Positions 1,528 to 62,226 of a stretch of 64,000 bases of DNA are shown here, piece by piece. The position numbers were made by a program, and so were the translations under genes. Positions within the stretch are counted from its first letter, which is position 1, and each line of letters opens with the position of its first letter. This DNA comes from a virus. Location of the stretch: IMG/VR virus record IMGVR_UViG_3300030202_002773, positions 1 to 64,000 of that record; one strand, written 5' to 3'. The notes under the pieces are model-generated. The model saw nothing but the letters and a program-made list of their open reading frames with translations, had not been told where the DNA came from and searched no databases.

Positions 1528-4500
1528 ATGGCTCCAGATGATTATGAATATGATGACACGCCTGAAGAAGAAGAAGGAAGTTCAGAAGATCTTTATCGAC
1601 ACGATTCAGATGTAGAAGATACTAGTGAAGATATTGACTATAGTGATGTTATTGAGGTTGAACCTGAACAGTCATCTGATATTATACAAACTATATACGA
1701 AGGTAAACCTACTCAAGCTAATAAAGCTAAAGGTACTCCAGCCCCAAGACATAATATAATAAAAGCTGAAGCTATTTATGGTTCTGGGCAAAGTTCTGGA
1801 TCAACTGTTGTAACAATAAATATAAAACCAACTGGTGCTGGACCTCAATGGGATTTTGTAGTAAATTTAACAGATGTTACTTCCGGAACATACGCAGCTC
1901 AACCAGATCAAGTAGATAATAATACAACTCTTAATCATATACAATTAAGCTATTATACTGTTAGTGGAGGAGCGTCAAGTCCTGCTTGTCAAGTAGGTGC
2001 ACATACAAGAAACTATGAAGCTACATTTAATTCAGGACATGTAGAAGATTTTTCAATATTAGTTCCTGGATATTATAATAGTGTTGGTTATTATTTTAGT
2101 CAATACACTTTTATAGGTAATACAACTAATGAGGTTTATCCTTGTGCTGATCCTAATCCTGATTTTAGATTTCATGTAGGTAGAGTTTGGAGTACGGTAA
2201 ACGCAGTATCAGGAAATTTATTGGAACTTACTCAAATTGATGTAATTGATGACCCTAGTAATTTATGGACAAATGGAGCTTCTCTTGTTCAATTTTCAAG
2301 TGGTAAACCTGTTGAATTTACATTAATGGGAAATGGAGGTATAGGTTCTGATAATTTCTATCTAGCAAATGTAAATGGAGGTGGTACTGCCTCAACATAT
2401 AATGTTGATCCAAATCAATTTTTAAGGCAAAAAGTACGAAGTATTGTTGCTATAATAGATGATGGAATTCATCCAGCTGCCCCAACTGCATTTGCAGGTT
2501 TTAATACAATTCCTAACTCTGGATTAAATTGGTCAGAAGTAGAATATGGGTTTGGTCCTAATCAATGGTTTACTAATTATAATGTAGGGGGTAATTTTCC
2601 TTTTGTTAGTTTTATTGAGTATGCTGAACATTTACCAGATTGTGATCCTACTACATTTGCTATTGATGCATGTTTAGATGTTAATTCTATGTCCTATTAT
2701 GGGTATACTGATAATGATTGTACTGGTACAACAATAGCTTCTAATATTTTAGCAAATCCAAGTTTAGCTGTTTGGACTCAACCTGCAGGGTGTTGTCCAG
2801 ATTGTATTAATCCTTTACATAGAAGTGATCCTAATACTTATAGTCCACTCCCTTTAATGATCAGTGCTGAATCTGTTAATCCAACTACTCCTGCAGGATC
2901 AGATGGTTATATAAATATAACTGTACTAGATGGAGGATTTACTCCTGCTGGTCAACCTATGGGATTCATTACAGGTGTAGCAAATTATACATATGTTTTA
3001 AGAAATCAGGATCCAACTGATGATATGATGAGCCAAACTGCAGGAAAAGCTGTTAGTTCTGGAGCTGTTTCTTCTACTGGTTTTACTTTTGGGCATAGTG
3101 TTGCTGCTACTAATAATAATGGAGGTTTAATACAAACAGGCGCAGCAGGAACTACTACTATTACTACTTCTGCTGCTCAGGGATATGTTCCTGGAGGCAG
3201 TGATATAGGAACAGGTGCAATTAGTGAAGGACTTAAAGCAGGGACTTATGATGTATTTGTATTTGATTCAAGTACAACTGTTTGTTTAGCAAGAACTACA
3301 GTTAATCTGCAAGACCCATCTCCAGTTGCTGGTTGTACGGATTCTAATGCATTAAATTTTAATTCTTTAGCTACTGTTGCAAATAATACTACTTGTCATT
3401 ATTGTGACGCTTCTACTGGAGAACTAGTTGATGGTAATACTCCAGCTGTTATAGTAGCACCTATAAATACAGTTAGTGGTTCACCATTTAATATACTAAC
3501 CTATCCAACACATACTACAGCTACAAATACTGTAGTTGATATTTCAGGTCTTAGTCCAACCACTCAATTTCAAGCTTACATAAATGATGTTGTTAGTGCC
3601 TCTGGTGCTCAGAATGCTAATTACATAGTATCATTACATAAGTGGACTACTCAAAGTTCTAGTGGTAGTTATGCTGCTAGTTCTACTATAGGTACAATTA
3701 CTTCTAATACAGGTTCTGGTTGGAATGTAACTTTAAGTAATTCTACTTTAGGGGCAGGTCTTACATATGGTTATTATAGTATAAAAATATCAATAAGTGA
3801 TCCAGATGCTACCGTAGAAATTGAACAATGTTACGAGATTATAGATTTTATAATTCCAGTACCAGCCTGTGTAGATGCTGGAGTAGCTACCGCTCAAGAC
3901 GGTGTTATAGTTTCAGATGCAAATTTATATTTCCATGATCAAACAATTTGTAATTTAGGTTCTAATACTTGTTGTAATGTAGTACATTTTACAGCTAATC
4001 ACATAAATGATTATTGTTCTGTTATAAAGTATAAACCTACAATTACTTGCCCTTTAGCAACTTATTACCATGAAATAACTTTACAGTATTATGATAATGG
4101 GTCTTGGGTAGATGTACCTGGTACAACTTTAGATTTTGGAAATATTAATAATAGTTCAATAACATATCCTAACACTTGGACTCCAGGTTTTATATTTACA
4201 TTTAATCATTTTGTTATTAATGGAAGTGGAGGTTATAGGGTAAAATGGACAAGTATAATTCCAAATAATAGTGCTTGTACTTTATATAGTAATGCAGAGC
4301 AAGTAACATTTGGTGTTTATGGGTGTACTGACTCTTCAGTAGATCAAAATGGAAATCAAGCTCTTAATTATAATCCGTTAGCGACTTGTCCTGAAGCTTG
4401 TGTATGGTGTATATATGGATGTACTACTCCTGGTTATTCAAATTATGATCCAAATGCTACATGTGATGATGGTTCATGTATTGGAAATGTTTACGGTTGT

Positions 4501-9295: not shown

Positions 9296-9619
9296 ATGGC
9301 AAAAGAATTAAACGAAGATACTACGTTTAAAATGAGTATCAAAACAATGGGTATGATAGCTGCTGGAATAGCAGTTGTTGTTGGAGGATGGTATTCACTC
9401 ATGTCTGAAATACAAGAAGCAAAAGAAAGTCCTGTACCTATAGATGTTAATATTATTAAAGAAGAAATTTTAAAAGAAATTCCAGAAGCTGAAATATCTA
9501 GGATGGAGTTTGATATGAAAGATCAAATGATTAGACAAACTATTATGACAACTCAATCAGACATAGAGGAAATGAAAAAGACTCTAGAAAAAATTGAAGA
9601 CAAACTCTACAACAGATGA
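9296..9619 (+). CDS. N-terminally membrane-anchored coiled-coil protein
   Basis: TM MGMIAAGIAVVVGGWYSLM then coiled coil ...DIEEMKKTLEKIEDKL; ATGA-coupled to the next gene. Confidence 0.6.
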   Translation: MAKELNEDTTFKMSIKTMGMIAAGIAVVVGGWYSLMSEIQEAKESPVPIDVNIIKEEILKEIPEAEISRMEFDMKDQMIRQTIMTTQSDIEEMKKTLEKIEDKLYNR

Positions 9620-9978
9620 AAAAACTAGACGTTACTTGGCAAATATTTACAATGTATATGTTAATTATAATATTTATGTTAGTAGCGGGAGTTTCTAAAG
9701 CGCAAATACAAGTATCTGTTTTTAACGCTAGTTGGAACGAAGCCAACAATATTGAGTGGGCTTCAGACTTAAAAGATGTTAAAACAACATCTTATATAGA
9801 TATAAGTAAAAATACAGAGCTACAAAAAAAACATAAAATAGCAGTTGTGCCTACAATTATAATATTCAAAGATGATGAAGAAGTTGCTAGGTTTCAAGCT
9901 GATCTTAGTTTTAAAATGATAGCAACAAGAGAAGAAGTACAAGAAGAAATAGATAACTTATTAATGAGTGATTTTTAA
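9616..9978 (+). CDS. exported thioredoxin-fold protein lacking CxxC
   Basis: Signal/TM ending SKAQ; FNASWNEAN replaces FxAxWCxxC; YIDISKNTELQKKHKIAVVPTIIIFKDDEEVARF matches the thioredoxin core with cis-Pro (VPT); no Cys at all. Confidence 0.7.
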   Translation: MKKLDVTWQIFTMYMLIIIFMLVAGVSKAQIQVSVFNASWNEANNIEWASDLKDVKTTSYIDISKNTELQKKHKIAVVPTIIIFKDDEEVARFQADLSFKMIATREEVQEEIDNLLMSDF

Positions 9979-12477
9979 ATGAAAAAAATATTATTATTAT
10001 TATTATTACCTATAATAACTTTTGCACAAAAAGAAGTTATTATACATTTAACAACAGATAATTATCCATCTGAAACAAGATGGGTATTACATGCTGATAG
10101 TTTTCAAGGAGCTATACTAGACGAAGTAGCTTACGGTCATTATGACTCTTCTAATACAGCGCATATGGATACAGTATATATTCCAGATAGTATAACTAAT
10201 ATATCTTGGGTTATATATGATCAATATGGGGATGGTATCCCTGGAGGTAGTTATTATGTATCTATATGTCAAGATACTATAGTAAGTTACCCAAATCCTA
10301 CATTTACAACAGGTTTAATACATAATAGACTTGTACCGCAATGTGCTGCTAATCCCCCTCCATGTGTACCAGCTACAGTTATAATTAACTTAGATCAATA
10401 TCAAGGTGAGACATCTTGGGACATAAAAGACACAAATGGGACAATTTATGCAGAATCAGTTACATATGCAGGTAACCCTGATTATGCTACTATTATAGTA
10501 CCTGTGTGTATACCTAAAGGAGAGTTAATATTTACAATATATGATAGTTACGGAGATGGTTTAAACGGAGCTTTATGGCAAGGTCAAGACGGTTCTTATT
10601 ATTTAAAACAATGTAATGACACATTAATATATGGAACTGATCCTGCCTTTGGTAACGACACGTCACATATATTTATATCTGATTCTTGTCCACCTATATT
10701 AGGGTGTACAGATAATGATTATATAGAATGGAATCCTTTTGCTGATGTAGATGATGGTAGTTGCCAAACGTTAAAAATATTTGGGTGTTTAGACACAACA
10801 ATGTACAACTACGATCCATTAGCTAACACTATGGAACTTATAGATACTTGTACATATACTTTAGTTTTACATGATTTAATGGGTAATGGATGGGTAGGCT
10901 CTCATTTAGTATTACATCATCCTGACACGTCATATCAATTTACACACACAGGAGGATTTGATGATATATACTATGTAGGGCTAACTGCTCCAGATCCTAT
11001 AATGTTTAAGTTTTTTATAAGTTCACAAGCTTCACTAACTACAATAGAATGTGGATTTACTTTTATTAATCCAGAAGGAGATACAATGATTAGTATACAG
11101 CCTCCATTTATACAACCTTTATTACCTTACAATTTAATAACAAATTGTGGTAATACATGTGAAGAAAAAGTATTTGGATGTACAGATGTATTAGCAATAA
11201 ATTATAATTCTTTAGCAAATACTGAAGATAACAGTTGTTATTATAATCCAGGGTGTATGAATTCTTCGTATTTGGAATATTATACACAGGGCTTTACGGC
11301 AGACTATGACGATGGGACTTGCTTAACAGTAGCCGTGTGGGGTTGTATTGATAGTACAGCCTTTAACTATGATCCATTAGCTAATATAAGTAATGGAGGT
11401 TGTTTACCTGTTATTACAGGATGTATGCAGCCACTTGCATTTAATTATAATCCTAATGCTAATACGGCAGATACGTGCATAGCTATAGTATATGGATGTA
11501 TGAGTAATATAGCAATTAACTATAATCCTCTAGCTAATACAGATGACGGATCATGTATAGGAGTATTTTACGGGTGTACAGATAGTACAATGTGGAATTA
11601 TATGCCTAGTGCTAATACTGACGATGGAAGCTGTTTACCATATATTTACGGATGTATGGATCCAACTATGTATAACTATAATCAATTAGCTAATACGGAT
11701 AATGGATCATGTATAGCATTTTTATATGGTTGTATGGATTCTACAATGTTTAATTATGATCCTTTAGCAAATACAGATAATAATACTTGTGTACCATTTA
11801 TATATGGATGTACAGATCCTTCAGCTTTAAACTATTGTGACACATGTAATACAGATGATTTTAGCTGCATATTACCTATATACGGGTGTACTGATAGCAC
11901 TATGTTTAATTTTAATTCTTTAGCCAATGTTGACAATAATTCTTGTATACCTTTTATCTATGGGTGCACTGACCCTAGTATGCTTAACTACAATGCCCAA
12001 GCTAATACAGAAGATTTCTCTTGTATTGCTTATATTTATGGTTGTACCGATAGTACTGCTATTAATTATGATTCAACAGCTAATACTGATAATGGTTCGT
12101 GCATGGCTATTGTTGAAGGATGTATGGATCAGTCTGCCTACAACTATAACGTTACGGCTAATGTTAATGACTCTTCTTCTTGCTTATATAGCGCTGCTTG
12201 TATCACTGGTCCTGGTAATCCTTACTGGCTTAATGACCCCTGCTATGCTTGGGTAATAGAAGTAGATGAATACTGCTGTGAAAATGAATGGGATACTATA
12301 TGTCAATCTACATATAATTATTGCGAAGGAACATGGACAGGACCATTACCAAAAAGAATTGATAAAGAATTACTAATGATTACAGATTTATTAGGCAGGC
12401 CAGCAAAACCAGGAAAAAATCAATTACTATTTTTTATATATAGTAATGGAACAGTAGAAAAGAAAATATCAAAATGA
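9979..12477 (+). CDS. secreted Cys-repeat adhesin-like protein with T9SS CTD-like C-terminus
   Basis: Signal peptide MKKILLLLLLPIITFA|Q; three D-x-(Y/M)-G-(D/N)-G beta-sandwich modules; 15 GC(T/M)D repeats; CC..WD..C module; tail ITDLLGRP...LFFIYSNGTVEKKISK. Confidence 0.7.
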   Translation: MKKILLLLLLPIITFAQKEVIIHLTTDNYPSETRWVLHADSFQGAILDEVAYGHYDSSNTAHMDTVYIPDSITNISWVIYDQYGDGIPGGSYYVSICQDTIVSYPNPTFTTGLIHNRLVPQCAANPPPCVPATVIINLDQYQGETSWDIKDTNGTIYAESVTYAGNPDYATIIVPVCIPKGELIFTIYDSYGDGLNGALWQGQDGSYYLKQCNDTLIYGTDPAFGNDTSHIFISDSCPPILGCTDNDYIEWNPFADVDDGSCQTLKIFGCLDTTMYNYDPLANTMELIDTCTYTLVLHDLMGNGWVGSHLVLHHPDTSYQFTHTGGFDDIYYVGLTAPDPIMFKFFISSQASLTTIECGFTFINPEGDTMISIQPPFIQPLLPYNLITNCGNTCEEKVFGCTDVLAINYNSLANTEDNSCYYNPGCMNSSYLEYYTQGFTADYDDGTCLTVAVWGCIDSTAFNYDPLANISNGGCLPVITGCMQPLAFNYNPNANTADTCIAIVYGCMSNIAINYNPLANTDDGSCIGVFYGCTDSTMWNYMPSANTDDGSCLPYIYGCMDPTMYNYNQLANTDNGSCIAFLYGCMDSTMFNYDPLANTDNNTCVPFIYGCTDPSALNYCDTCNTDDFSCILPIYGCTDSTMFNFNSLANVDNNSCIPFIYGCTDPSMLNYNAQANTEDFSCIAYIYGCTDSTAINYDSTANTDNGSCMAIVEGCMDQSAYNYNVTANVNDSSSCLYSAACITGPGNPYWLNDPCYAWVIEVDEYCCENEWDTICQSTYNYCEGTWTGPLPKRIDKELLMITDLLGRPAKPGKNQLLFFIYSNGTVEKKISK
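11173..12183 (+). repeat. tandem array of 13 ~26-aa (~78-nt) GC(T/M)D-x3-NY-x3-AN-x-D-x-G-SC repeats
   Basis: Visible in translation (YGCTDSTMWNYMPSANTDDGSC, YGCMDPTMYNYNQLANTDNGSC, ...); nucleotide copies are diverged. Confidence 0.9.
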
Positions 12478-13538
12478 AAAAAATATTAATATTACTTTTA
12501 TTACCATTATTTAGTTTATCTCAAAATACTACTTTAGATATATTTAAATTTTCTACTGTGTATGGAGCTGTTAACGGAGGTACATCTATATCAGATATAG
12601 AAGCTTTTTCTATTACTAATGGACTACAAACTTCTACTATAGAAACACCTTTTGATTATTCTGTAACTGTAGGAATAAGAAAAATAGCTAGATTTGGATA
12701 TGAAAATAAAGCTAATACGTTTTATGATGGTACAGAATCTAATTATACAGATGCTGCTACAGTAGGTAAAGTTCAAGGTTTTGAATATTTATTTGAAGTA
12801 GATTATGCTAGACAACAAGGTATAGATTATATAGATCAACATCATTTTATTAGATACAGTTCTGACGATGATTGTGAAGGTCCTTATTGTGTAAGTCATT
12901 TAGCTGCAAAAGTAGAATATCTTAAAAATGGGTTTGCAGATATAGAGTATTTTGAACTGTCTGAAAGATATAGATACAAAAAAACTAAAGACTTATCTAT
13001 TAGTATAGGAGCTGTACATAGATTAGCAGAACCTTATGGATATGATCCATTAAATGAATGGATATTATCAAATGGTAATTTACATTATACATATTTAGCT
13101 ATACAAGAAGGATATACAGTTGATGTACATAATAGTGAGTATAGAGATCCTAATGGTAATATAGTAGCTAACAGTGCTGACGTTTGGAAAGAAGTTGTTA
13201 TACCACAAGTATTAGCAGATTATACTGTTAAAAAAAGAAATGAATTAAAAAACATTATACAACATTCTATAGTTGTTGGATTTGACTATTATAAATATAG
13301 TAAAAGTACATGGTTACACGCATGGGGAAATTTAATGCCATATCACTATAATGATGGTAATGAGTTTAGTTATCATAATTACATAGAAGATGATCAGTGG
13401 TATGATTATTCTGGTGGTGTAATATATGGTATTAAAATAAATAAACAATTAGGATATTTTGTAGAAGGCAAATACAATAAGTATTGGAATAGAGAGTGGT
13501 ATGATTTTAAATTTGGTATTAATTATATAATAAGATAA
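12474..13538 (+). CDS. putative outer-membrane beta-barrel protein
   Basis: Signal peptide MKKILILLLLPLFSLS|Q; amphipathic Tyr/Trp-rich strands; C-terminal WYDFKFGINYIIR resembles a BAM beta-signal. Confidence 0.6.
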   Translation: MKKILILLLLPLFSLSQNTTLDIFKFSTVYGAVNGGTSISDIEAFSITNGLQTSTIETPFDYSVTVGIRKIARFGYENKANTFYDGTESNYTDAATVGKVQGFEYLFEVDYARQQGIDYIDQHHFIRYSSDDDCEGPYCVSHLAAKVEYLKNGFADIEYFELSERYRYKKTKDLSISIGAVHRLAEPYGYDPLNEWILSNGNLHYTYLAIQEGYTVDVHNSEYRDPNGNIVANSADVWKEVVIPQVLADYTVKKRNELKNIIQHSIVVGFDYYKYSKSTWLHAWGNLMPYHYNDGNEFSYHNYIEDDQWYDYSGGVIYGIKINKQLGYFVEGKYNKYWNREWYDFKFGINYIIR

Positions 13539-30327: not shown

Positions 30328-33102
30328 ATGGCAAGAATAAATATACCAAAACCAATAAGTACATATAGAGATTTAGGAACAGTTGAATTAGCTAAATTAG
30401 CTAGAAATCAATATATAGAAGGATATTCTGCAGCTGATGAATTTTCAAACTCTGTACATAATATGCAATCTTTATCAAAAGATGATCATTTAAAAAATAA
30501 ACTTTCTACTGAATATACACAAATGTTAGAAGGATGGTCTGACCGTGGAGATTACGAAACTTTAGGAATAGCTATAAATAAAGGAGCTAATCAATTTGTT
30601 AGAGATTATTCGCCTATAGAACAAAGTGTTAAAAGTAGAACTGAATATCAGGAAAGATTACAAAAAGCATATGAAGATGGTAATATTAATTCAAGAACTT
30701 TAAGGGATAGATTAGCTCAATCAGATTATATGTATCAAGGTATTCAATATGGAGAAGATGGATCTTTAGATCAGCAGTCTGTTTATAGTGGTAAACAATT
30801 TTATAATGATGTAGATATTACAGAAAAAGTAATAGAGAGAATGAAAAGTATTAAGCCTTTTATTCGTGAAAATTTAGGTACTGAAGTTCCATATAATGAA
30901 AATATGGAAATTACTACTACTCAAGGATTACGAGGAGAACCTAAATATTGGGTTACAACTAAAGGTAAAACATCACAAATTCCTGATAATATAATTCAAA
31001 TGGTTGTTAATGATGTAATGTCAGATCCTGATGTTTCTGCTTCTTTAGCGCAACAGGTAGAATTAGATACATATCAACTTGGAGAAACAGATCCAACTAC
31101 TGGAAATTCTCGTGCATTAGATTATATTACTAAATTAATAAATAAAGGAGATGTTAAACAAGAAGAAATAGCTCCTATAGTAGAACAGATGGGACCTCTA
31201 GTTGCTTTACAAAATTTATTATATCAAGATGCTGTTAATAGAGAAACACAATTAGCATTAGGATCTTATGGTGGAGTTAGACAGCAGTCACATGGACAAA
31301 CAATTGAAATAGATGATCTTTATAAATTAAACTATAAAGCTAAAATAGATAAAGCTAAAAAAATAACAACAAGTGCAGATGATGAATTATCTTATAGTGC
31401 AACTGTTAGTACAAAAGCATTAACTACTACTTTTGAAGAAGGTGAAGAAATGTTAGAAACTGAAATAAAAAGTATGAAATCTAACTTATCTAAAGTTTCA
31501 CAGCATTTAAATGTAAATCCAGATAATATTCAGTATGATGATCAAGGTAATGAAATTCCAAGTAAAGGAGAAGGTTTAGCTGTAGGTGATATGGATCCAA
31601 GACAAATTTATGAAAGTGCAAATCAGTTAGTAGATGCGTGGAGAACTGCTTCTGCAAAAGCTAATATTATACCGTTAGATTATATGGGGTGGAGAAATTC
31701 AGGAAAAATACCTCCACAAGGAAAAGAAGAAGGTCAAGATGAATATTTAGCACGTTTAGATGAAGCATACAATGGATATGTAAATAATCTTAAGACTCAA
31801 TCACAAGCAGGACTTACATATTTACAAAATACTGCAGCAATTAATGATTTAGATGTAGGTCAATTTAACAGTCTTATGGAAGTACTTTCTAGTAATACTA
31901 CTACGTATGATGTAATTGATTCTAAACTGTATGGTAATATTGATGGTCTTAGTGTTCCTAATACTGAAGGATATGGTAATAATTTAAGTGTAGCTGAATT
32001 TAAAGATATTAGAGGTAATCAATTATTAGGAGCAGAAATGGGACATGAGAATTCTGACTTAAAAATTTCAGGTCAAGACATTGTAGATGCATATAATTAT
32101 ATGGCTGCAAATGATATGTTAAAATTAGAAATGGAGGGTGAAAGAGATTTACCTAAATCAATATCTCATTTAGGAGAATTACCTGAAATGTTCTATGCAG
32201 GAAACATTTTTGAATCTTTTGCATTTGCCGGTAATTCAAATGAAAATATTCATGGTTTAATTGGGGCCTTAGCTGAAATTAAACGAGGTCAAGGATACAA
32301 AGTTGCGGGAACTTACCAAAGAGGTACGGGAGAATATACATGGGCAGGAGTAGATAATGGGTATAGATTTGATGAAGGTAACCAGCAATATTCATTTAAT
32401 TTAGGAATACAAGAATTTATTAATCAATTAAATGATGATACTAAGTTAACTAAAAATAAATTTAAAGAGCAGTATGCAAATTCAGAAGATGTTATGTTAG
32501 AGTCTTTTGTTATTACTAATTTTGGATCTAATTATGAAACATCTAGTATAGCTAAAAATGAGTTAGTAGATTTCTTTAAAGGTAATGCAATACCTCCTAA
32601 CTTCTCAATAAGAGAAGCGCAAGGTCAAAGTCCTAATTTAGAATTTGAAGGAGGATTTATAAATTCTGAAAATGGCGAAAGTAATCATTTTGGATATAAT
32701 GTAGAATATAATATTTTAGAAGATCAAATGGGTGTTTTAAATGTACAATTAGGAGATGATGGAGTTAATGTGTATGTACCTATTAAAATTACAAACTCTC
32801 CACCATCAAACAGTAATGCTACTGACCATAAAGGTAAAGTATTTAATATGTTAATTCCAACTAAAAACTTTAATCTTCCAGCTTTAAGTCAATATGTTAA
32901 TAGTGCAGAAATGGAAATTAATACTTTATGGAATATGGGTGTAGCTAATAGAAATACTACATGGAGTCCTAAAAGATATTCAAATGTAACATTTAATTAT
33001 AATAATGAAACTGTTGTTATTAATGGAGAAGAACACAGTAAACAAAAAGGATTATCAATTTTAGTACAAAATGAGCTTAATAGAAGAAATATTAAACAAT
33101 AG
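30328..33102 (+). CDS. ejected cargo protein, function unknown
   Basis: 924 aa, helical, no Cys, within the cargo cluster. Confidence 0.55.
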   Translation: MARINIPKPISTYRDLGTVELAKLARNQYIEGYSAADEFSNSVHNMQSLSKDDHLKNKLSTEYTQMLEGWSDRGDYETLGIAINKGANQFVRDYSPIEQSVKSRTEYQERLQKAYEDGNINSRTLRDRLAQSDYMYQGIQYGEDGSLDQQSVYSGKQFYNDVDITEKVIERMKSIKPFIRENLGTEVPYNENMEITTTQGLRGEPKYWVTTKGKTSQIPDNIIQMVVNDVMSDPDVSASLAQQVELDTYQLGETDPTTGNSRALDYITKLINKGDVKQEEIAPIVEQMGPLVALQNLLYQDAVNRETQLALGSYGGVRQQSHGQTIEIDDLYKLNYKAKIDKAKKITTSADDELSYSATVSTKALTTTFEEGEEMLETEIKSMKSNLSKVSQHLNVNPDNIQYDDQGNEIPSKGEGLAVGDMDPRQIYESANQLVDAWRTASAKANIIPLDYMGWRNSGKIPPQGKEEGQDEYLARLDEAYNGYVNNLKTQSQAGLTYLQNTAAINDLDVGQFNSLMEVLSSNTTTYDVIDSKLYGNIDGLSVPNTEGYGNNLSVAEFKDIRGNQLLGAEMGHENSDLKISGQDIVDAYNYMAANDMLKLEMEGERDLPKSISHLGELPEMFYAGNIFESFAFAGNSNENIHGLIGALAEIKRGQGYKVAGTYQRGTGEYTWAGVDNGYRFDEGNQQYSFNLGIQEFINQLNDDTKLTKNKFKEQYANSEDVMLESFVITNFGSNYETSSIAKNELVDFFKGNAIPPNFSIREAQGQSPNLEFEGGFINSENGESNHFGYNVEYNILEDQMGVLNVQLGDDGVNVYVPIKITNSPPSNSNATDHKGKVFNMLIPTKNFNLPALSQYVNSAEMEINTLWNMGVANRNTTWSPKRYSNVTFNYNNETVVINGEEHSKQKGLSILVQNELNRRNIKQ

Positions 33103-33107
33103 CCAAT

Positions 33108-36100
33108 ATGCCAATAGAAATAGATCCAAATATACAGTTTCCTACTACAAAGGTTCCTAGAAATAAAACAAATGATCCTAAATGGGTAGATCCTAATACT
33201 CCACTTGTATATGGTCCAAAGAGTGGAAGAATAACTTCTCCTGCAATACACAGTCATAGAGACTTATCATGGAAATTATGGGATCCAAATTCTGGAGAAT
33301 ATGAAAACGTTTCAAAGTATAGTAAATATGGAGTTATGTTTAGTGCTTATGGGCCTTCTTGGCAAGAACAAAGAGCAAGAGGACAAAGCACTGGAGAAAA
33401 ATGGAATCACGGACTTAAAAAAGCAGCTGTAACTACTGGAGGAGCTATTGTAGAAAATACTTTAGGTGTTATAGCTGGGGTAGGAGAATTACTAAGTGGT
33501 GGTCAATATCATGATAATTCTATTGGGCATATGGTAGATGGGTGGAATGATTGGGCTAGAAAAGAAATGCCTAATTATTATACTGAAAAAGAAAAAAATA
33601 TGGGACTTTATGGTAGAATGGGAACTGCTAATTTTTGGGCTGATAAAGTTGCTAATGGTGCAGGATATACTATAGGGTCATTAGCTACTATGTACCTTAC
33701 AGGAGGATATGGTCTTATAGGTTTAAGTTCTAAAGCATTAAACATGAGTAGTAAAGCTGCTAATATAACAAAAGCACAAAAAATATATAAACTATATAAA
33801 TCAGCTCAAGGTACTAAAAGAGGAGAGAAATTATTATCAATGTATAGTAAAATGAATACAGGACAAAAGTTTAGAAATGGACTTTTAACATTAGAAGCTG
33901 GAGCAATGATGTCTTTAGCAGAATCTTCTGTAGAAGCTAGAGAAACTCAAAAAAATATAAAATCTCAATTATTAGAAGAAGCAAAAGAAAAATATCCTAA
34001 TGGAGTACCTGAAAATGTGTTAGCAGAAATTGAATCTTTATCTCAATCGGCAGGTAATAGTTCTTTTGTAGGAAATATGACTATTTTATCTTTATCTAAT
34101 ATAGCTATGTTTAATAGATTTTTAGCTGGAGGAGTTACAAAACAAAGTTTAAAGAGTGGGGTTACAGGTGGAGGATTAACAAAAACTGGAACTAAAACTG
34201 TCGTAGATAAAGGATCTTCATCTTTTTTTGGAAGAGCTAGAAAATGGACAAAACCTTTAAGAAGAGGTGCACTTATAGAAAGTCTTCAAGAAGGAGGTCA
34301 ATACGCAACAAACATAGCTTCTACAGAATACTATTCATCTAGATTTGACAATAAAGGAGGTATAACTATGATGCAAGCTCTTAATGAAGGAGTATCTAGA
34401 ACATTTGGAGAAACAGAAGGATTAGAGTCAATGATGATAGGAGCTATAATTGGGGGAGTTTCAGGAGGTGTAACTGGAACAATAGGTCCAATAAAACAAA
34501 GAAATAAATTAGCAAAAAAAGTACAAGAAATTATTAATGATGATGCTTTTATGAATATTGTTGATAGAAGTCAAGCTAATGCACGTACTTCACATTTTTT
34601 AGACAAAGCTGATAAATATAGAGCTGAAGGGAAAGATAAGTTAGCAGATCAAGCTATGACTCAAGCTTTTATAAGTGAAATATCTACTTTAGATAATGCA
34701 GGAACATTAGAATTTTTTACAGAAAGATTAGAAGATTTTAAATCTCTTTCTGATACAGAATTTAAAAAATTATTTGGTATAGCTGAAGATACACAAATAG
34801 ATAAAAATCAAGTTATTGATAATATGATAGAAGAAACTGAAAGCATAGTTAAAAGAAAAGATGCTTTAGATTTAATGTTTCCAGCTGAAAAAACAAGAGG
34901 TTTACCAAGACGTATGATGAGTGAAGAAGCTAAGGCTGAAGAAGACCAAAGAATTAAAGAAACAATGATTTTAAAAGATCATCTATTGCAAAATGCAGTA
35001 TTTTTAGATCAAGTAGAAAATCAAAAAAGAGATAAAGCAAGAGAGATAGATGAATTATATCCAGGCATAACATTAAGTACTTTAGAAGAGCAAGCAGATT
35101 TAGCTACAGAAGAATATGATTTATTAGTTGAACAGTATATTAGAAAAGCAGGGGCAGCTGAAGAAGTAGATGAAAGTGGTACTCCTATAACAAATGAAAG
35201 TCAAATTCCTGAAGCAGATTTATTAGCTATGCATCAACAAGCTTTTGGTAATTTTGTTACTAGTGTAGCAGAATCTGTTAAAAATATTAATTTAAATCAC
35301 CCTTTAGATAAACAAGCTTTAATGGGTAGTCTTCAAGAATACTATGGAATACATCGTAGTTTACAAGGTCTTATGGAGTCTTTTAATAGACTTCAAACTA
35401 ATGAAGGTAAAAATAACTATATAAGAGCAGCTTTAATAGATGGAAAACAAAGTATAAAAGATGCTGGTAATAGAAGAGCTGATGAAATTTTAAATAATGA
35501 ATCTGATCCTGACAATGCTATGGATAATATTCCTCCTAATGCTAGTAAAGCAAAAAAAGCTGAAATAGAAGAGGAAGTTAAAAGAATGAAAAAAGAAGAG
35601 CTAGCATTGTTAAATAAGTATGGAGATCCTGGAGTTTCTGTAGAAACTATAGATAAAGAAATTGAAAGACTTAAAAAAAATCTACAAGATATTAAAGATA
35701 ATCCTAAAGCTGCTAAAGATTTAAATTTTAAAATTAAAGTTTTAGAAACTGTTAAAACTGTAAAACTTAGTCCTGAAACTTCTATAGCTGAAAAAGACGC
35801 TAAGTCTGAAGTTGCTACTGAAGAAGAAGTTACCGAAGAAAATAAAGTTGAGCAGACAGGAAGAGGAAGAAGACAAATTGATAGAATAAAAAAGAAATAT
35901 GAAAGTGCAAAACAGCCTCAAGAAAAATTAGGTTTAATACAAGATTTTATTAATAATGTATATCAAGGTGCTGAGGCTACTCAAGAAGAAATAGATTTCT
36001 TTAATAATGAAATAGAAGCTCTTAAAAAAGAAGGGTTTGAACTACAAATGGAGACACAACCTGGGAATAGATGGAATGAAGGTATGAATGTAGAAGTTAT

Positions 36101-51928: not shown

Positions 51929-52079
51929 ATTTTAATTTTTATTAGGTTAAACATATCAGGGGAGGAATTGTAATTACACACAAAGTATAACAGCAATTAT
52001 AAATTATTTGTATTACTAACCTCCCCCTCTATGCATCAATTAAACACGAGTTGGAAAATCACTAAACAACTCTTCTCAG

Positions 52080-55493: not shown

Positions 55494-56348
55494 TTAAAAT
55501 ATATACCTAATTGTGTTCCAAGGTATAATTTGATTATGTAGTTGTTTGAATTCTCGTATATACTCAGCTTTCATACCAAGTTTGTATCGTATATTTTCTC
55601 CTCCATACTGAGAGCGTTTAATTTCTTGCTTATCTAAAACCCACAAGTCTATTTCTGTTTCAGGGTGTTTCCCTAAGTTAACTGTGTGCTTCTTAAAGTT
55701 ATGTGTGAGAAAAATACATTCTGATAATACTTTATCTTTGTTTTTTACATAAGTATTTACCAGATTAAATAAATCTTTATAATCTTCTAACCACCCATCA
55801 TACACTATAATAGGGCTGTAATTAACGTGTACATCGTAACCAGCATCAATAAATCTATCAATAGCTTTTAATCTATCTAATATTTTAGAAGTTTTAGGCT
55901 CATGTAAATCTGATTTATGCTGTGGCATTAAACTGAATCTAATGCGTATCTTACTTTGAGGGTTAAATGAAAGAAGGTTATTGTTGACATATTTAGTTGC
56001 AAAGCTGCCCATAGCCATGGGGTGATCTCTAAAGAACTCAAAGATCTTTTCCCATTGATGGTGTTTAGCGTGCAATGCAAAGTCTTCGTTACAACTAATA
56101 TCATATGTTGTAAAGTCTGCGTGTGTTTGATTAGGTTTATCTACAGGTGTGAAGAAAGCATGGTTATTTATAGCTGTTAATATATCTCCTGTATTAGTTG
56201 CTACATCAAGACCACTATCTTTATGTCTTTTCATGTAGCAATAAGAACAGTTATATAAACAACCATAGCCAAAACTTGGACTAATAAAATCTGTAGATCT
56301 ACCTGAAGGCCTAATAAGCATAGACTTTCTAGTGATCTTTTTTATCAT
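55494..56348 (-). CDS. splB: spore photoproduct lyase-like radical SAM enzyme
   Basis: GCLYNCSYCY (CxxxCxxC), ISCNED (SplB H-donor Cys motif), FATKY, IRFSL, RLKA, SPII. Confidence 0.8.
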   Translation of the reverse strand: MIKKITRKSMLIRPSGRSTDFISPSFGYGCLYNCSYCYMKRHKDSGLDVATNTGDILTAINNHAFFTPVDKPNQTHADFTTYDISCNEDFALHAKHHQWEKIFEFFRDHPMAMGSFATKYVNNNLLSFNPQSKIRIRFSLMPQHKSDLHEPKTSKILDRLKAIDRFIDAGYDVHVNYSPIIVYDGWLEDYKDLFNLVNTYVKNKDKVLSECIFLTHNFKKHTVNLGKHPETEIDLWVLDKQEIKRSQYGGENIRYKLGMKAEYIREFKQLHNQIIPWNTIRYIF

Positions 56349-56563
56349 AAGCCTTCGTCTCTTTTTCCGTCTGCCATCATTTCAGCATGTGATTCTTTTT
56401 GCAATTCTTCATATTCATAATCTTCCATAGGTTCACAATGATCTTTGCATTGATAACAAAGACCTCTGTCTTCATCCATTTTTGCTCCGCAACAATCGCT
56501 TACCATGTCAGATCCGTAACCATCATCTATAGGGTTACTTAATTTCCAGTTATCATAGTTCAT
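56345..56563 (-). CDS. small zinc-ribbon protein
   Basis: SDCCGA...CYQCKDHC; acidic tail. Confidence 0.6.
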   Translation of the reverse strand: MNYDNWKLSNPIDDGYGSDMVSDCCGAKMDEDRGLCYQCKDHCEPMEDYEYEELQKESHAEMMADGKRDEGL

Positions 56564-56594
56564 AATTTTTGTTTAATTGATTAATAAAAAAGAA

Positions 56595-56770
56595 AAGATA
56601 GTATAGGCTTGCCGTTGATTCACACTTATCTTAAACTGCTCTCCATGTTCGCAGTAAAGTACTTACGCGCTTTCCTTCAATAAGTGCATCCGTTTTATCT
56701 GGACCTTCTATAGTGGCATCTTCTAACCACACGTAATGGGGCGGTACTCATGTTCGCACTATACTTTCTA
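56595..56770 (-). ncRNA. candidate structured ncRNA with nested helices and a pseudoknot; family not recognised
   Basis: GC-enriched 209-nt gap. Minus-strand helices AGUAUAG/CUAUACU, GAGUAC/GUACUU, UUACGUGU/GCGCGUAA, ACUGC/GCAGU and crossing GCACUUAUU/GAUAAGUGU; followed by a U-rich tail. Confidence 0.55.
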
Positions 56771-56772
56771 AT

Positions 56773-57204
56773 CTATAATTGTGTTATAAGTTCAACAACT
56801 TCATCTACTTGCTTTTTGTTTCTTGGCATAAAAAGCACATATTGTTTGTTGTTGTCTTTAAGATGTTTTTTAAATAGCTTCCACCTTAAAGGAAAAGACT
56901 CATTTGCATAGCCTTTTGTTTCGATAATAAATTTACCGTTGGGATCTACAAAATCAGGTGTATATGTTATAGGTCTGATTTTAGATCCTTTGTTATAAAG
57001 CTTTTTAGTTGTCCCTTCATAACAAGCCAATGGATAAACCATTGCAGGAAATATAGTAAATGTTTCCTCTTCGTATTTAACTTTAATTTTAGCTTCTTCT
57101 AATTTTTTATAACAATGTAACTCTAAATTAGATTTAAATTCGAGTCCTTTATACGTAGATTTTTTAGCATTCTTTACTTTAGATCTAGAGTACTTCCTCC
57201 TCAT
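56773..57204 (-). CDS. PD-(D/E)xK endonuclease (T7 endonuclease I/DUF1064-like resolvase)
   Basis: FKSNLE...YEEE...TYTPDF...IIETKG. Confidence 0.85.
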   Translation of the reverse strand: MRRKYSRSKVKNAKKSTYKGLEFKSNLELHCYKKLEEAKIKVKYEEETFTIFPAMVYPLACYEGTTKKLYNKGSKIRPITYTPDFVDPNGKFIIETKGYANESFPLRWKLFKKHLKDNNKQYVLFMPRNKKQVDEVVELITQL

Positions 57205-58351
57205 AATTCATTACATTAGTTTGAAGGTACCCTTCCAGACCTCTATTCTTATTCCAAATATACGCTTGACCACATCTAAGCGTTCCAACATATCCTTGTG
57301 TTTTATGCCATAAATCATTACCACAAATAGATGGGATAAATCTAACTTTAGTTCCCATATATTCATTAAGCATTTCTTTATGTCTATGTCCACAGTGTAC
57401 TTCTCTTACTTTAGCTCTACTCCACATAGCTGGTTGCTCTGTAGCTATAAGTAAAGGTAATTCTTGAGTTTTTTCTTTATCACCGTGTGTAAACATAATC
57501 ATATTAATTCCATATTCATAGTATTTACGAGCATCTAAGCTATTATCTACTGTTACATTCTTATTGTTTTTATATATAGCATCTAAAACTTCTCCTGCAT
57601 AAAACATACGTTCGAAGTCATGGTTACCTTGTACAACAACAACATCAACTGGCGCAAACTGAGCTAAGTAATCAATTGCTTTACTTACTAGGTGCCAGTA
57701 TCCTCTAAAAGATTCACGCCATCGCATATTATCTTGCTGAGGTGTACCTTTAGTAGTAGCTCGACTCATACCTTCTGAATTAAGTCCATCATTACCTACA
57801 GGTAATAAAAATCTATCTATTTCTAAACCGTCGGCTTTTTTATGTAGATCCATAATAGCTTGTATATAATGTTTTTCTATTATATTCATAGGCTCATCAG
57901 TTATCTTACCATAATGTATATCTGGGAGAGAAATCTCATAACAAATAGGATCCTTATGTTTTTTGTACTTAACTTTAGGAACTTTAACACTCCTAGTTTT
58001 AATATAATCTAATAAATCTGCTTTAATGTTAGGCATTTCATGCCACGAATTATGTGTAACAATACTAAATCTTTGTTCACCCATCATATTCTGCCAAAAC
58101 TTTACAGATTTAACATCTGCTTGAGTTAAGCCATTTTCTTTAAGATGGTCTAAATATTTAGTACTGCCTTTTAATTCATTTCCATTATCGTTATTCATTC
58201 TATCCTGAATACATTCTGCGGAAGTAACAGTTTTTTTACACTCTTGAATTAATACAGGATCTACGTCCCAATGTTCTGCTAACCAATCAACTCCTTTTTT
58301 CTGATAACTTTTTTTTGTTTGTAGTTTCTCAATAATTTCATCTTTTGTCAT
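57185..58351 (-). CDS. calcineurin-like metallophosphoesterase
   Basis: PDIHYG, GND, GNHD, FTHGD, GHRH. Confidence 0.85.
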   Translation of the reverse strand: MTKDEIIEKLQTKKSYQKKGVDWLAEHWDVDPVLIQECKKTVTSAECIQDRMNNDNGNELKGSTKYLDHLKENGLTQADVKSVKFWQNMMGEQRFSIVTHNSWHEMPNIKADLLDYIKTRSVKVPKVKYKKHKDPICYEISLPDIHYGKITDEPMNIIEKHYIQAIMDLHKKADGLEIDRFLLPVGNDGLNSEGMSRATTKGTPQQDNMRWRESFRGYWHLVSKAIDYLAQFAPVDVVVVQGNHDFERMFYAGEVLDAIYKNNKNVTVDNSLDARKYYEYGINMIMFTHGDKEKTQELPLLIATEQPAMWSRAKVREVHCGHRHKEMLNEYMGTKVRFIPSICGNDLWHKTQGYVGTLRCGQAYIWNKNRGLEGYLQTNVMNYEEEVL

Positions 58352-61508: not shown

Positions 61509-61679
61509 TTATTTAGTTTTAAGATATTCTCTAATTCTACTTTCACTTCTATCAAGAACTTCCGCAATATTTTTTATAGACATGCGTTTAGTCTTTAATT
61601 TTCTAGCAATTGTAGCCATTTTAATCACTGCTACAGATTTTAAATCTGTCCATTGTTTTGTCTTACTGTTCCAATTCAT
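61509..61679 (-). CDS. small helix-turn-helix protein
   Basis: MSIKNIAEVLDRSESRIREYL; ATG at 61679 follows the stop of the upstream small ORF. Confidence 0.7.
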   Translation of the reverse strand: MNWNSKTKQWTDLKSVAVIKMATIARKLKTKRMSIKNIAEVLDRSESRIREYLKTK

Positions 61680-61680
61680 A

Positions 61681-61818
61681 TTATGCTTGTTTTTTATACC
61701 AGACTCCCCTACCTTTAGCTTTACCGGTAAGTTCAACTGTTTTAATTACTATTAATTCTTCTTCTTTAGAAGGATTATACTTTGGATTTTTGCTGTTCAG
61801 CTTTCTTTTTTTTGTCAT
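61681..61818 (-). CDS. 45-aa basic protein (absent from ORF track)
   Basis: MTKKRKLNSKNPKYNPSKEEELIVIKTVELTGKAKGRGVWYKKQA*. Confidence 0.6.
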   Translation of the reverse strand: MTKKRKLNSKNPKYNPSKEEELIVIKTVELTGKAKGRGVWYKKQA

Positions 61819-61930
61819 ATTTTATTATATTATCCATTAATTTATTTATTCCTTGTCTTTTTACATTATAAGCATACAAACTAGTGCATATAGCAAATAT
61901 TCCTATTACTATTGTTATTATATATACCAT
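61775..61930 (-). CDS. 51-aa single-TM protein (absent from ORF track)
   Basis: MVYIITIVIGIFAICTSLYAYNVKRQG...KSKV*; TAATG-coupled to the upstream ORF. Confidence 0.55.
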   Translation of the reverse strand: MVYIITIVIGIFAICTSLYAYNVKRQGINKLMDNIIKYDKKKKAEQQKSKV

Positions 61931-62043
61931 TATTTCTTTGTTCTTTTATCTATATGCTTATCTATTTGGGAAGAAAAGTACATTCCTGTTACTAATCCTG
62001 CGCCCCAAGCTATTAAATGAGTGATTATCCAAGTTATTTCCAT
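61930..62043 (-). CDS. 37-aa single-TM protein (absent from ORF track)
   Basis: MEITWIITHLIAWGAGLVTGMYFSSQIDKHIDKRTKK*. Confidence 0.55.
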   Translation of the reverse strand: MEITWIITHLIAWGAGLVTGMYFSSQIDKHIDKRTKK

Positions 62044-62222
62044 TTGATATCATATTTTGTTATTAATTCATTTCTTTTTCTAATTAATTGTGATCTAGAA
62101 GCAGTTGGAGCTGAAAACATATCAGTTCTTTGTATATATCCAACAGCAGATTGCTTGCCTTCTAGGTTATTAATACTTTGAGTTAAGTTTTTTATTATTT
62201 CTTTTGCTTTTTGTTTTGACAT
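62034..62222 (-). CDS. small basic hypothetical protein
   Basis: Probable start MSKQKAKE at 62222, just after the DnaB stop. Confidence 0.55.
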   Translation of the reverse strand: MSKQKAKEIIKNLTQSINNLEGKQSAVGYIQRTDMFSAPTASRSQLIRKRNELITKYDIKWK

Positions 62223-62226
62223 AATT

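Follow-up and report, generated by a model that had tools for sequence, protein, structure and literature searches.

An uncatalogued family of structured RNAs in marine phages, probably an accessory cassette between early genes

The DNA analysed here is a stretch of 64,000 nucleotides (nt), positions 1 to 64,000 of the IMG/VR virus record IMGVR_UViG_3300030202_002773, called the window below; the whole record comprises 81,845 bp and is about 95% complete. Positions 56589-56773 of its minus strand carry an RNA element which we read, at a probability of roughly 0.6, as a member of a small, uncatalogued family of structured non-coding RNAs of marine phages and as an accessory, swappable cassette in the terminator slot of an early transcript. 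The element is located in a gap of 209 nt (56564-56772) between a gene for a DUF1064 / endonuclease-I-like protein and a gene for a Zn-ribbon protein, and all genes surrounding it are on the minus strand.

Exact 20-24-mers of the core of the element identified one locus among viral contigs (L184) and three among metagenome contigs (L185-L187). Alignment of these loci showed that the 3' ~100 nt of the core are nearly invariant, even in L187 with its unrelated flanks, and that the 5' ~70 nt are variable. Patterns drawn from the invariant blocks yielded L188, L190, L218, L219, L223, L225, L226, L288 and L291; chance matches of the patterns in viral contigs were discarded (L189, L220-L222, L224, L229, L230, L284 and L292). 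A covariance model of 185 positions, R1, was built from nine sequences. Members of type 1, to which the window belongs, scored 197-227 bits with R1 and those of type 2 scored 140 and 97 bits; the two types are described below. A search of 272 sources with the model found one further, distant member, L148 (31.6 bits, E 1e-5 to 1e-7), which occupies the same DUF1064 slot of another crAss-like relative.

Altogether the element was found in 14 other records, and the family comprises 11 distinct sequences. It is a new RNA family, previously uncatalogued, with few members and no assigned function. The member count may miss the true size and spread of the family, since the 11 sequences come from few lineages and the search for homologues started from exact patterns. 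About 185,000 prokaryote species, represented by one genome each, were scanned with three patterns, which hit 27, 44 and 8 loci; none of these was the element according to R1, and the 27 loci of the first pattern set gave blastn matches of at most 26 nt only. These pattern scans of bacterial and archaeal genomes found no host or prophage copy.

Comparison of the members shows a predicted nested, multi-branch RNA, in which helix P1 closes P2, P3, P4 and P5, helix P5 bears a three-way junction with the hairpins P5a and P5b, and the junction nucleotides are invariant (Table 1). RNAalifold, applied to a MAFFT alignment of nine sequences (A4), returned 45 nested pairs, 13 of them with compensatory change. 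In this alignment 96.8% of the cells were paired and 13 pairs were changed on both sides, against 2.8 ± 1.4 in shuffled alignments (0 of 500 reached the observed value); controls in which A4 was slid were 29.5-46.7% paired, with 0-4 pairs changed on both sides. An alignment of the 11 distinct rows fitted to the model, and hence biased towards R1, contained 18 pairs and 34 cells changed on both sides, compared with 8.4 and 9.8 in shuffles (0 of 500). A scan of all column pairs ranked P5, P1, P5b and P3 first.

The two types differ in P1. In type 1, AAGAGAGUAUAG pairs with CUAUACUCUCUU; in type 2, UAUAG/CUAUA is replaced by GGGGG/CCCCC, a G-run facing a C-run, and an extra small hairpin is present on the 5' side. 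A change from G-C to A-U was also observed in P1 of L218. Type 1 and type 2 differ in four adjacent pairs of P5, which switch jointly, and L288 and L148 show additional wobble steps. P5a occurs in a second form, GACUAGUUAGUAC, in L218 and L288/L291, in which two inner pairs fail. Five positions of the alignment are mostly G-U, and would be C-A on the opposite strand, so the fold was assigned to the gene-sense (minus) strand.

A previous reading of the window, made from its letters only (the sequence-only reading), had described the region as an unrecognised, pseudoknotted RNA on the minus strand. The roles it proposed, namely a ribozyme, a riboswitch-like leader or a protein-sponging small RNA, are speculative. 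Its five helices are all present: a closing helix of 7 bp, two stacked helices of 6 bp (one G-U) and 8 bp (two G-U), a hairpin of 5 bp and a crossing helix of 9 bp (two G-U), which in the window sequence does cross both stacked helices as had been drawn. The relatives in A4 retain three of them. The closing helix was paired in 96.8% of the cells, with compensatory change in 4 of 7 pairs, and the hairpin (56655-56651 with 56639-56635) in 100%, with compensatory change in 1 of 5; the 9-bp helix is the P5 of Table 1.

The two stacked helices were not kept in the relatives. The 6-bp helix was paired in 81.5% of the A4 cells and the 8-bp helix in 79.2%, both with no compensatory pair; one pair was unpaired in 6 of 9 sequences in the former and one in 7 of 9 in the latter. 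In both, the 5' strand varies and the 3' partner stays fixed, and both compete with local hairpins, namely P3, which shows a compensatory change, and P5a, which is mostly invariant. The scan of all column pairs gave no crossing helix in which compensatory pairs numbered more than two. The crossing requires the 6-bp and 8-bp helices, and as these are not supported, neither is a pseudoknot. The earlier observation was therefore real and is partly confirmed: an unrecognised structured RNA on the minus strand was right, pseudoknotted was not supported.

That the RNA is unrecognised agrees with the database searches, which used the 4227 models of Rfam 15 with the gathering score of each family as criterion. 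There were no matches at gathering scores in the window or in the loci of 15 relatives. At E values up to 10 the sole overlap with the element was SNORD43, whose 13.8 bits fall short of the gathering score of 45 for that family, and at E values up to 5 nothing was found on the element in five other members. ARAGORN detected no tRNA or tmRNA gene in the window. Comparison of the gap with 50,697 phage records by blastn gave only short matches, covering at most 20% of the query, in 57 records, and R1 had no match in bases 1-50,000 of phage phi14:2. No description of the motif was found in the literature searched, at less than full-text depth.

The remaining features of the sequence had mostly been described correctly. 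The element is richer in G+C than its flanks (0.41-0.46 inside, 0.26-0.33 beside it) and the U-rich tract after it is present. The 10-mer said to occur twice is part of a 13-mer repeat (12 of 13 positions identical, at 56644-56656 and 56749-56761, 105 nt apart), and the exact pair of 10-mers is peculiar to the window among the aligned members. A pattern made of the two 10-mers with a gap of 80-110 nt was rejected: its 23 viral loci were all unrelated, mostly tandem repeats of giant-virus contigs. An inverted repeat of 16 nt (81%) stands at the two ends of the element, at 56591-56606 and 56759-56774. The gap had been called the largest in the window; this holds between open reading frames (ORFs) of at least 60 amino acids (aa), but 61737-62033 (297 nt), between two doubtful TTG-start ORFs, exceeds it. 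Those two ORFs (75 and 78 aa) are the only ones in 61568-62226, near the head of the minus-strand early genes, a stretch that may be a gene-free region larger than the gap of the element.

Relatives that hold the same slot were collected through their SPL-like and DUF1064 proteins, as 159 loci of related viral contigs (L001-L159). Comparison of the gap with these loci by blastn gave 61 hit rows, all within query positions 157-212, that is, the last 56 nt, made up of the U-run and the AU-rich leader of the Zn-ribbon gene. No match was found when the 182-nt core was searched against the 159 loci with nhmmer. Among the 52 loci holding both flanking genes the slot measured 19-456 nt. In L002, the nearest relative that still has the slot (95% aa identity by the SPL protein), about 20 nt separate the two genes. 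The slot is mostly occupied by a family of ~70 nt (family A, see below); in other relatives it holds further, unrelated stem-plus-U-run elements or a plain hairpin.

Natural variants of the element itself were found among Logan contigs of four public runs, which were compared with positions 56250-57250. In run X3, which belongs to a separate study, one contig covers 56569-56814 with substitutions at 56706 and 56736 and with one base of the leader deleted; the element thus occurs elsewhere in the sea. Both substitutions fall in unpaired linkers, at sites that vary likewise among the other members, and the one at 56736 breaks the end pair of the 8-bp helix of the earlier model. In a second contig of X3, position 56593 is joined to 56774 through 22 other letters, which form a simple GC hairpin in the gene sense. 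In this sister strain the plain hairpin replaces the element exactly, with the DUF1064 stop codon on one side and the same U-run on the other. The element is dispensable, as the sister strain has a plain GC hairpin in its place. An accessory function is thus more likely, and an essential one, for instance as a replication origin, unlikely.

The members occur in four gene contexts. In the first (window, L184-L186 and L148) the element stands between the DUF1064 and Zn-ribbon genes. In the second (L187, L188, L218, L223 and duplicates) it follows an ORF of 56-61 aa located behind a DUF932 gene and precedes a 51-aa ORF or a winged helix-turn-helix (wHTH) gene. In the third (L288/L291) it lies between a helicase gene and a Zn-ribbon gene, and in the fourth (L190) behind genes for a helicase, a Zn-ribbon protein and a 41-aa ORF and ahead of a 128-aa ORF. 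The orientation agreed with that of the flanking ORFs in all loci checked (window, L187, L190, L218, L291 and L148), and in five members examined for it, 10-30 nt separated the 3' end of the element from the start codon that follows.

The two P1 arms delimit the similarity between members. L188 and the window have 91% identity in the core, and the flanks are unrelated. The genome of the window encodes a 2788-aa protein that matches the crAss-like phage virion RNA polymerase in 86 phage records (best E 7e-24; identity ~23-24% in the eight matches listed), and on this ground it was assigned to a distant marine crAss-like phage. Neither the crAss polymerase nor DUF1064 had a match in the records behind L218, L219 and L188 (G001-G003, 58-80% complete). 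Comparison of the loci thus shows apparent movement of the element between phage lineages, with four gene contexts and at least two lineages. G001-G003 and the window genome have tail-fibre-like proteins in common (64-69% identity), which suggests shared hosts and a route for exchange. In G001 these genes lie at 30856-34707 and correspond to window positions 9296-13538 (plus strand), with 46-69% protein identity between phages that are otherwise unrelated.

One copy of the element was present in each of the five records searched. A miniature inverted-repeat transposable element was considered and rejected: the inverted repeat is the P1 stem, the copy number was one in 5 of 5 records, and the sister strain shows a replacement and not an empty site with a duplication. 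A search for a protein partner common to the element-bearing genomes gave only tail-fibre-like, terminase/portal-like and metallophosphatase genes, none of which adjoins the element.

A small-peptide gene was likewise rejected. A frame of 33-38 codons is open on the sense strand of the window, and each of the two X3 substitutions changes the third position of one of its codons. In a six-frame check of the 11 distinct members, no frame was open with a start codon in all of them, and neither start nor end was constant: L187 lacks a start and is interrupted by a stop at the tryptophan codon, a TGA has arisen in both L184 and L187, and the frame is shifted in L148. Searching the relatives with the 38-aa frame by tblastn gave nothing. 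The similarity of the "peptide" appears merely to mirror the conservation of the nucleotides.

Table 1. Features of the element and of its surroundings in the window
Feature	Positions	Strand	Remarks
Upstream gene, DUF1064 / endonuclease-I-like protein, 143 aa	56773-57204	-	Pfam PF06356, E 3.4e-9
Whole element according to R1	56589-56773	-	224.1 bits, E ~1e-53; sole match in the 81,845-bp genome
P1, 5' strand (outer AGAA, core AGUAUAG, GC)	56756-56769	-	Starts 4 nt past the DUF1064 stop; 7 of 13 pairs compensatory
P2 (GCC / GGC)	56740-56742 with 56611-56613	-	3 bp, weak; 90.9-96.3% of cells paired
P3 hairpin (GUGGU / GCCAC)	56713-56730	-	Compensatory change G-C to A-U in L187 and L218
P4 hairpin (GUCC / GGAU), A-rich loop	56688-56704	-	Type 1: stem invariant, loop variable; inner pair lost in L288 and L148
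P5, 9 bp (crossing helix of the earlier model)	56679-56687 with 56622-56630	-	100% of cells paired, 4 of 9 pairs compensatory (A4, nine sequences)
P5a hairpin, GUAA loop (56663-56666)	56656-56673	-	Invariant in 8 of 11 distinct members
P5b hairpin (ACUGC / GCAGU; hairpin of the earlier model)	56635-56655	-	One pair G-C, C-G or A-U; the next C-G, U-G or U-A
Invariant single strand GAAUCAAC between P5 and P2	56614-56621	-	Identical in 12 of 12 aligned matches, including the distant L148
P1, 3' strand (GC, CUAUACU, AUCU)	56596-56608	-	One outer pair is an A-A mismatch in the window, G-C in other type-1 members
U-rich tract, partly the outer 3' strand of P1	56586-56599	-	Same U-run after the plain hairpin in the sister strain
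Conserved AU-rich leader of the Zn-ribbon gene, outside the element	56564-56585	-	Inside the only part of the gap common to relatives
Downstream gene, 72-aa Zn-ribbon protein	56345-56563	-	Homologues follow the element in L184-L186, L148 and L288/L291

The sequence-only reading had named what would speak against it: no conservation or covariation in relatives, a fold no better than that of shuffled sequences, or a conserved small peptide. No open frame with a start was kept across the members. On the two other points the finding seemed refuted at first, because no conservation was seen in the syntenic relatives and the fold was no better than shuffles. The minimum free energy of the window sequence was -40.9 kcal/mol, compared with -38.4 ± 4.0 for shuffles (z = -0.61; 58 of 200 shuffles folded as well), and the plus strand was slightly better (z = -1.26). 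The covariation in the alignment nevertheless exceeded that of shuffled alignments, and it was found in the members retrieved by pattern and model. Structural support comes only from the relatives; the single sequence gives none beyond chance.

The core is absent from 158 of the 159 syntenic loci, L148 being the only one with the element. Several observations weigh against the interpretation as a swappable structured RNA. The single-sequence folds (z = -0.61, -0.22, +0.29 and +0.83) are no better than shuffles. The family is small, and most of the compensatory changes separate few lineages, making the number of independent events modest; recent transfer, not selection, may account in part for the high identity seen across phage lineages. 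A scan for terminators (compact GC-rich hairpin with a loop of 3-8 nt, followed by a U-run) found none that is compact at the site, where P1 encloses ~150 nt, and the members of the second context have a poorer U-run. Termination at P1 is for these two reasons something we infer. Of the RNA-library contigs only X15 (56726-56967) lies on the element; it is a Logan contig, was derived from an oligo-dT library and may be DNA. A second, X17, ends at 56774, and both lack strand and ends and give no evidence of expression. Nothing points to a partner or a function of the element.

With the interpretation as an accessory cassette in a terminator slot, the early transcript of the upstream gene would extend through the element. 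P1 and the U-run may take the role of a terminator or of a processing stem, and a stable RNA of ~170 nt would be left or released. The invariant P4-P5 core, with the invariant GAAUCAAC strand, may be the working part and bind some partner. The cassette would have spread by recombination between phages infecting the same hosts, and its function would be accessory, not essential. In the Cellulophaga crAss-like phage phi14:2, the available part of the published account places the replication module in an early class read by the virion polymerase and describes two early intergenic RNAs as abundant and stable (10.1101/2020.03.07.982082).

A more far-reaching version is offered tentatively. The element could be a self-contained, horizontally mobile accessory RNA gene, swapped into the terminator slots of early operons by phages that share hosts, with a P4-P5 core that acts in trans or as a sensor. 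Such an RNA might serve as a decoy or sponge, drawing off a host defence factor or a host RNA-binding factor; alternatively, it might be a ligand-sensing terminator or represent a new class of ribozyme. The unrelated stem-plus-U-run elements of the slot would be a pool of interchangeable RNA cassettes.

The main competing explanation, somewhat less probable than this version and on the whole unlikely, is a cis-acting leader of the next gene, either riboswitch-like or a protein-binding operator, in which P1 and the U-run compete with an alternative pairing of the 5' strand of P1 and thereby set read-through or translation. The short distance to the next start codon fits such a leader, and so does the architecture, in which P1 closes a junction of several stems whose unpaired bases are invariant; moreover, in 6 of the 11 distinct members the next gene is a homologous Zn-ribbon gene, and the gene upstream of the element is DUF1064 in some of these and a helicase in the others. 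The other 5, however, precede different genes (a 51-aa ORF and then a wHTH gene, or a 128-aa ORF), which gives at least three unrelated kinds overall, L148 has another element between the RNA and the gene, and the sister strain does without the element. An alternative helix of 7 bp, UAUAGUG/CACUAUA, would exclude P1 and P3 and is 93.7% paired with two compensatory pairs, but it is absent in type 2, and shuffles scored as high in 16-19 of 500 cases. No ligand is indicated, nor any operator protein. It is improbable that the element is a self-cleaving ribozyme of a new class, cutting the polycistronic early transcript between cistrons. Like many small ribozymes, the element stands alone, is bounded by P1 and is mobile between unrelated intergenic sites of phages, and its junction core is invariant; yet six members gave no match to the ribozyme families among the Rfam models at E values up to 5-10, and no conserved candidate cleavage site could be named.

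Two further explanations have very little in their favour by our estimate. A function at the DNA level, as a single-strand initiation signal, an origin or a recombination site in the replication block, would suit the neighbouring replication genes (DUF1064 nuclease, helicases, DUF932) and the several short palindromes inside the element. The strand-specific G-U pairs, the GUAA loop and the three-way junction fit RNA better, the orientation is always sense in the loci checked, and the sister strain dispenses with the element. A chance-structured insert, a decayed gene remnant or a small-peptide gene, with no function of the element itself, was already disfavoured by the results above and is equally improbable: the fold no better than shuffles, the absence from nearly all syntenic loci and the open frame of the window with its third-position substitutions could be read in this way, but four helices show compensatory changes, a stretch of ~100 nt hardly varies although the flanks are unrelated, the frame is interrupted or has no start in L184, L187, L148 and others, and the tblastn search with the peptide was empty.

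The nearest known systems are analogies only. Intrinsic (Rho-independent) terminators with paired A- and U-tracts resemble the element in having a stem directly before a U-run at the end of a cistron, and both the plain GC hairpin of the sister strain and the stem-plus-U-run elements of the relatives occupy the same place; the stem of the element, in contrast, is no compact hairpin with a loop of 3-8 nt, since it encloses ~150 nt of conserved, covarying multi-branch structure. The RNase III processing hairpins between the cistrons of the early mRNA of phage T7 are single irregular hairpins. They share with the element the position of a structured RNA between cistrons of an early polycistronic transcript, and the long closing stem could be a processing site, but here that stem closes a multi-branch domain.

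The GOLLD, ROOL, HEARO and IMES motifs are orphan structured RNAs from marine or phage sequence, first seen in metagenomes and in some cases phage-borne. Like them, the element would be a conserved RNA with a complex fold and without an assigned function; none of the Rfam models matches it, however, and it is smaller (~170-250 nt) and so far limited to few marine phage contigs. The early intergenic RNAs of phi14:2, at the g004-g005 and g005-g006 junctions, are comparable as non-coding, sense-strand RNAs of the early region of a marine crAss-like phage with no function assigned in the part of the account available, and they differ in being much longer and in their place, the head of the early region instead of a site between replication genes (10.1101/2020.03.07.982082). 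The aptamers of riboswitches have a similar size, a closing P1, invariant junction bases, a position near a start codon and a possible competing helix; the element differs in having no match to an Rfam riboswitch, no constant class of downstream gene and no ligand, and in being dispensable.

RNAs with complex folds and invariant junctions that lack an assigned function are rare, and several earlier ones proved to be ribozymes, riboswitches or protein-handling RNAs. Three features of the present element are unusual: its own closing stem marks its limits, it has apparently moved between unrelated marine phages, and it is naturally exchanged for a plain terminator hairpin. These features suggest that early operons of phages contain, beside the better-known accessory protein genes, an accessory layer of swappable RNA cassettes. 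The element is also a short, synthesisable target for experiments, for which the hairpin of the sister strain provides a natural "minus" control.

Downstream from the Zn-ribbon gene, the window contains SPL-like radical-SAM, metallopeptidase/vWA and AAA genes. The SPL-like radical-SAM protein (55494-56348, minus strand) has more than 600 relatives in viral contigs and gave no tblastn match in the 50,697 deposited phage records.

Family A, the commonest occupant of the DUF1064 slot, is also present in the window, as a hairpin of ~70 nt at 51958-52026 (minus strand) inside the gap 51929-52079. It was found in L007, L010-L012, L016-L020, L047, L081, L115, L117, L135, L139, L151 and others, with 27 distinct instances in L001-L159, all on the gene-sense strand. 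Its outer stem is GGGGAGG/CCUCCCC and its inner stem UUAGUAAU/AUUACAA, followed by a U-run, and its 41-nt loop contains the invariant motif G(C/U)(G/U)GUUAUACUUUG. RNAalifold on 17 instances returned 13 pairs, 6 of them with compensatory change, and there was no Rfam hit. Family A might be a promoter inside a terminator-like hairpin.

A second family of elements, family B, follows DUF1064 in L003 (868-965), L004, L005, L006, L138 and L144. It has the form GGACUAG..CUAGACGGGCAUUGUAG..CUACAUGUAAGUCCGC followed by a U-run and is a conserved structured element, the stems of which vary from copy to copy. Stem-plus-U-run elements that occur once only were observed in L147, L107, L134, L056 and L093.

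The slot can also hold protein genes. An extra ORF of 65-71 aa, with a basic N-terminus followed by ..YFF.NP.ANS.., is present in L093, L151, L146, L115, L081, L122, L016, L135, L142 and L007, and an unrelated ORF of 78 aa in L056/L051. The slot between the DUF1064 and Zn-ribbon genes is a hot spot for small accessory genes and RNA elements. In L148, positions 3430-3830 carry tandem cassettes: family A follows a type-2 member of the present family, which bears a long 5' insertion, and precedes the leader of the Zn-ribbon gene.

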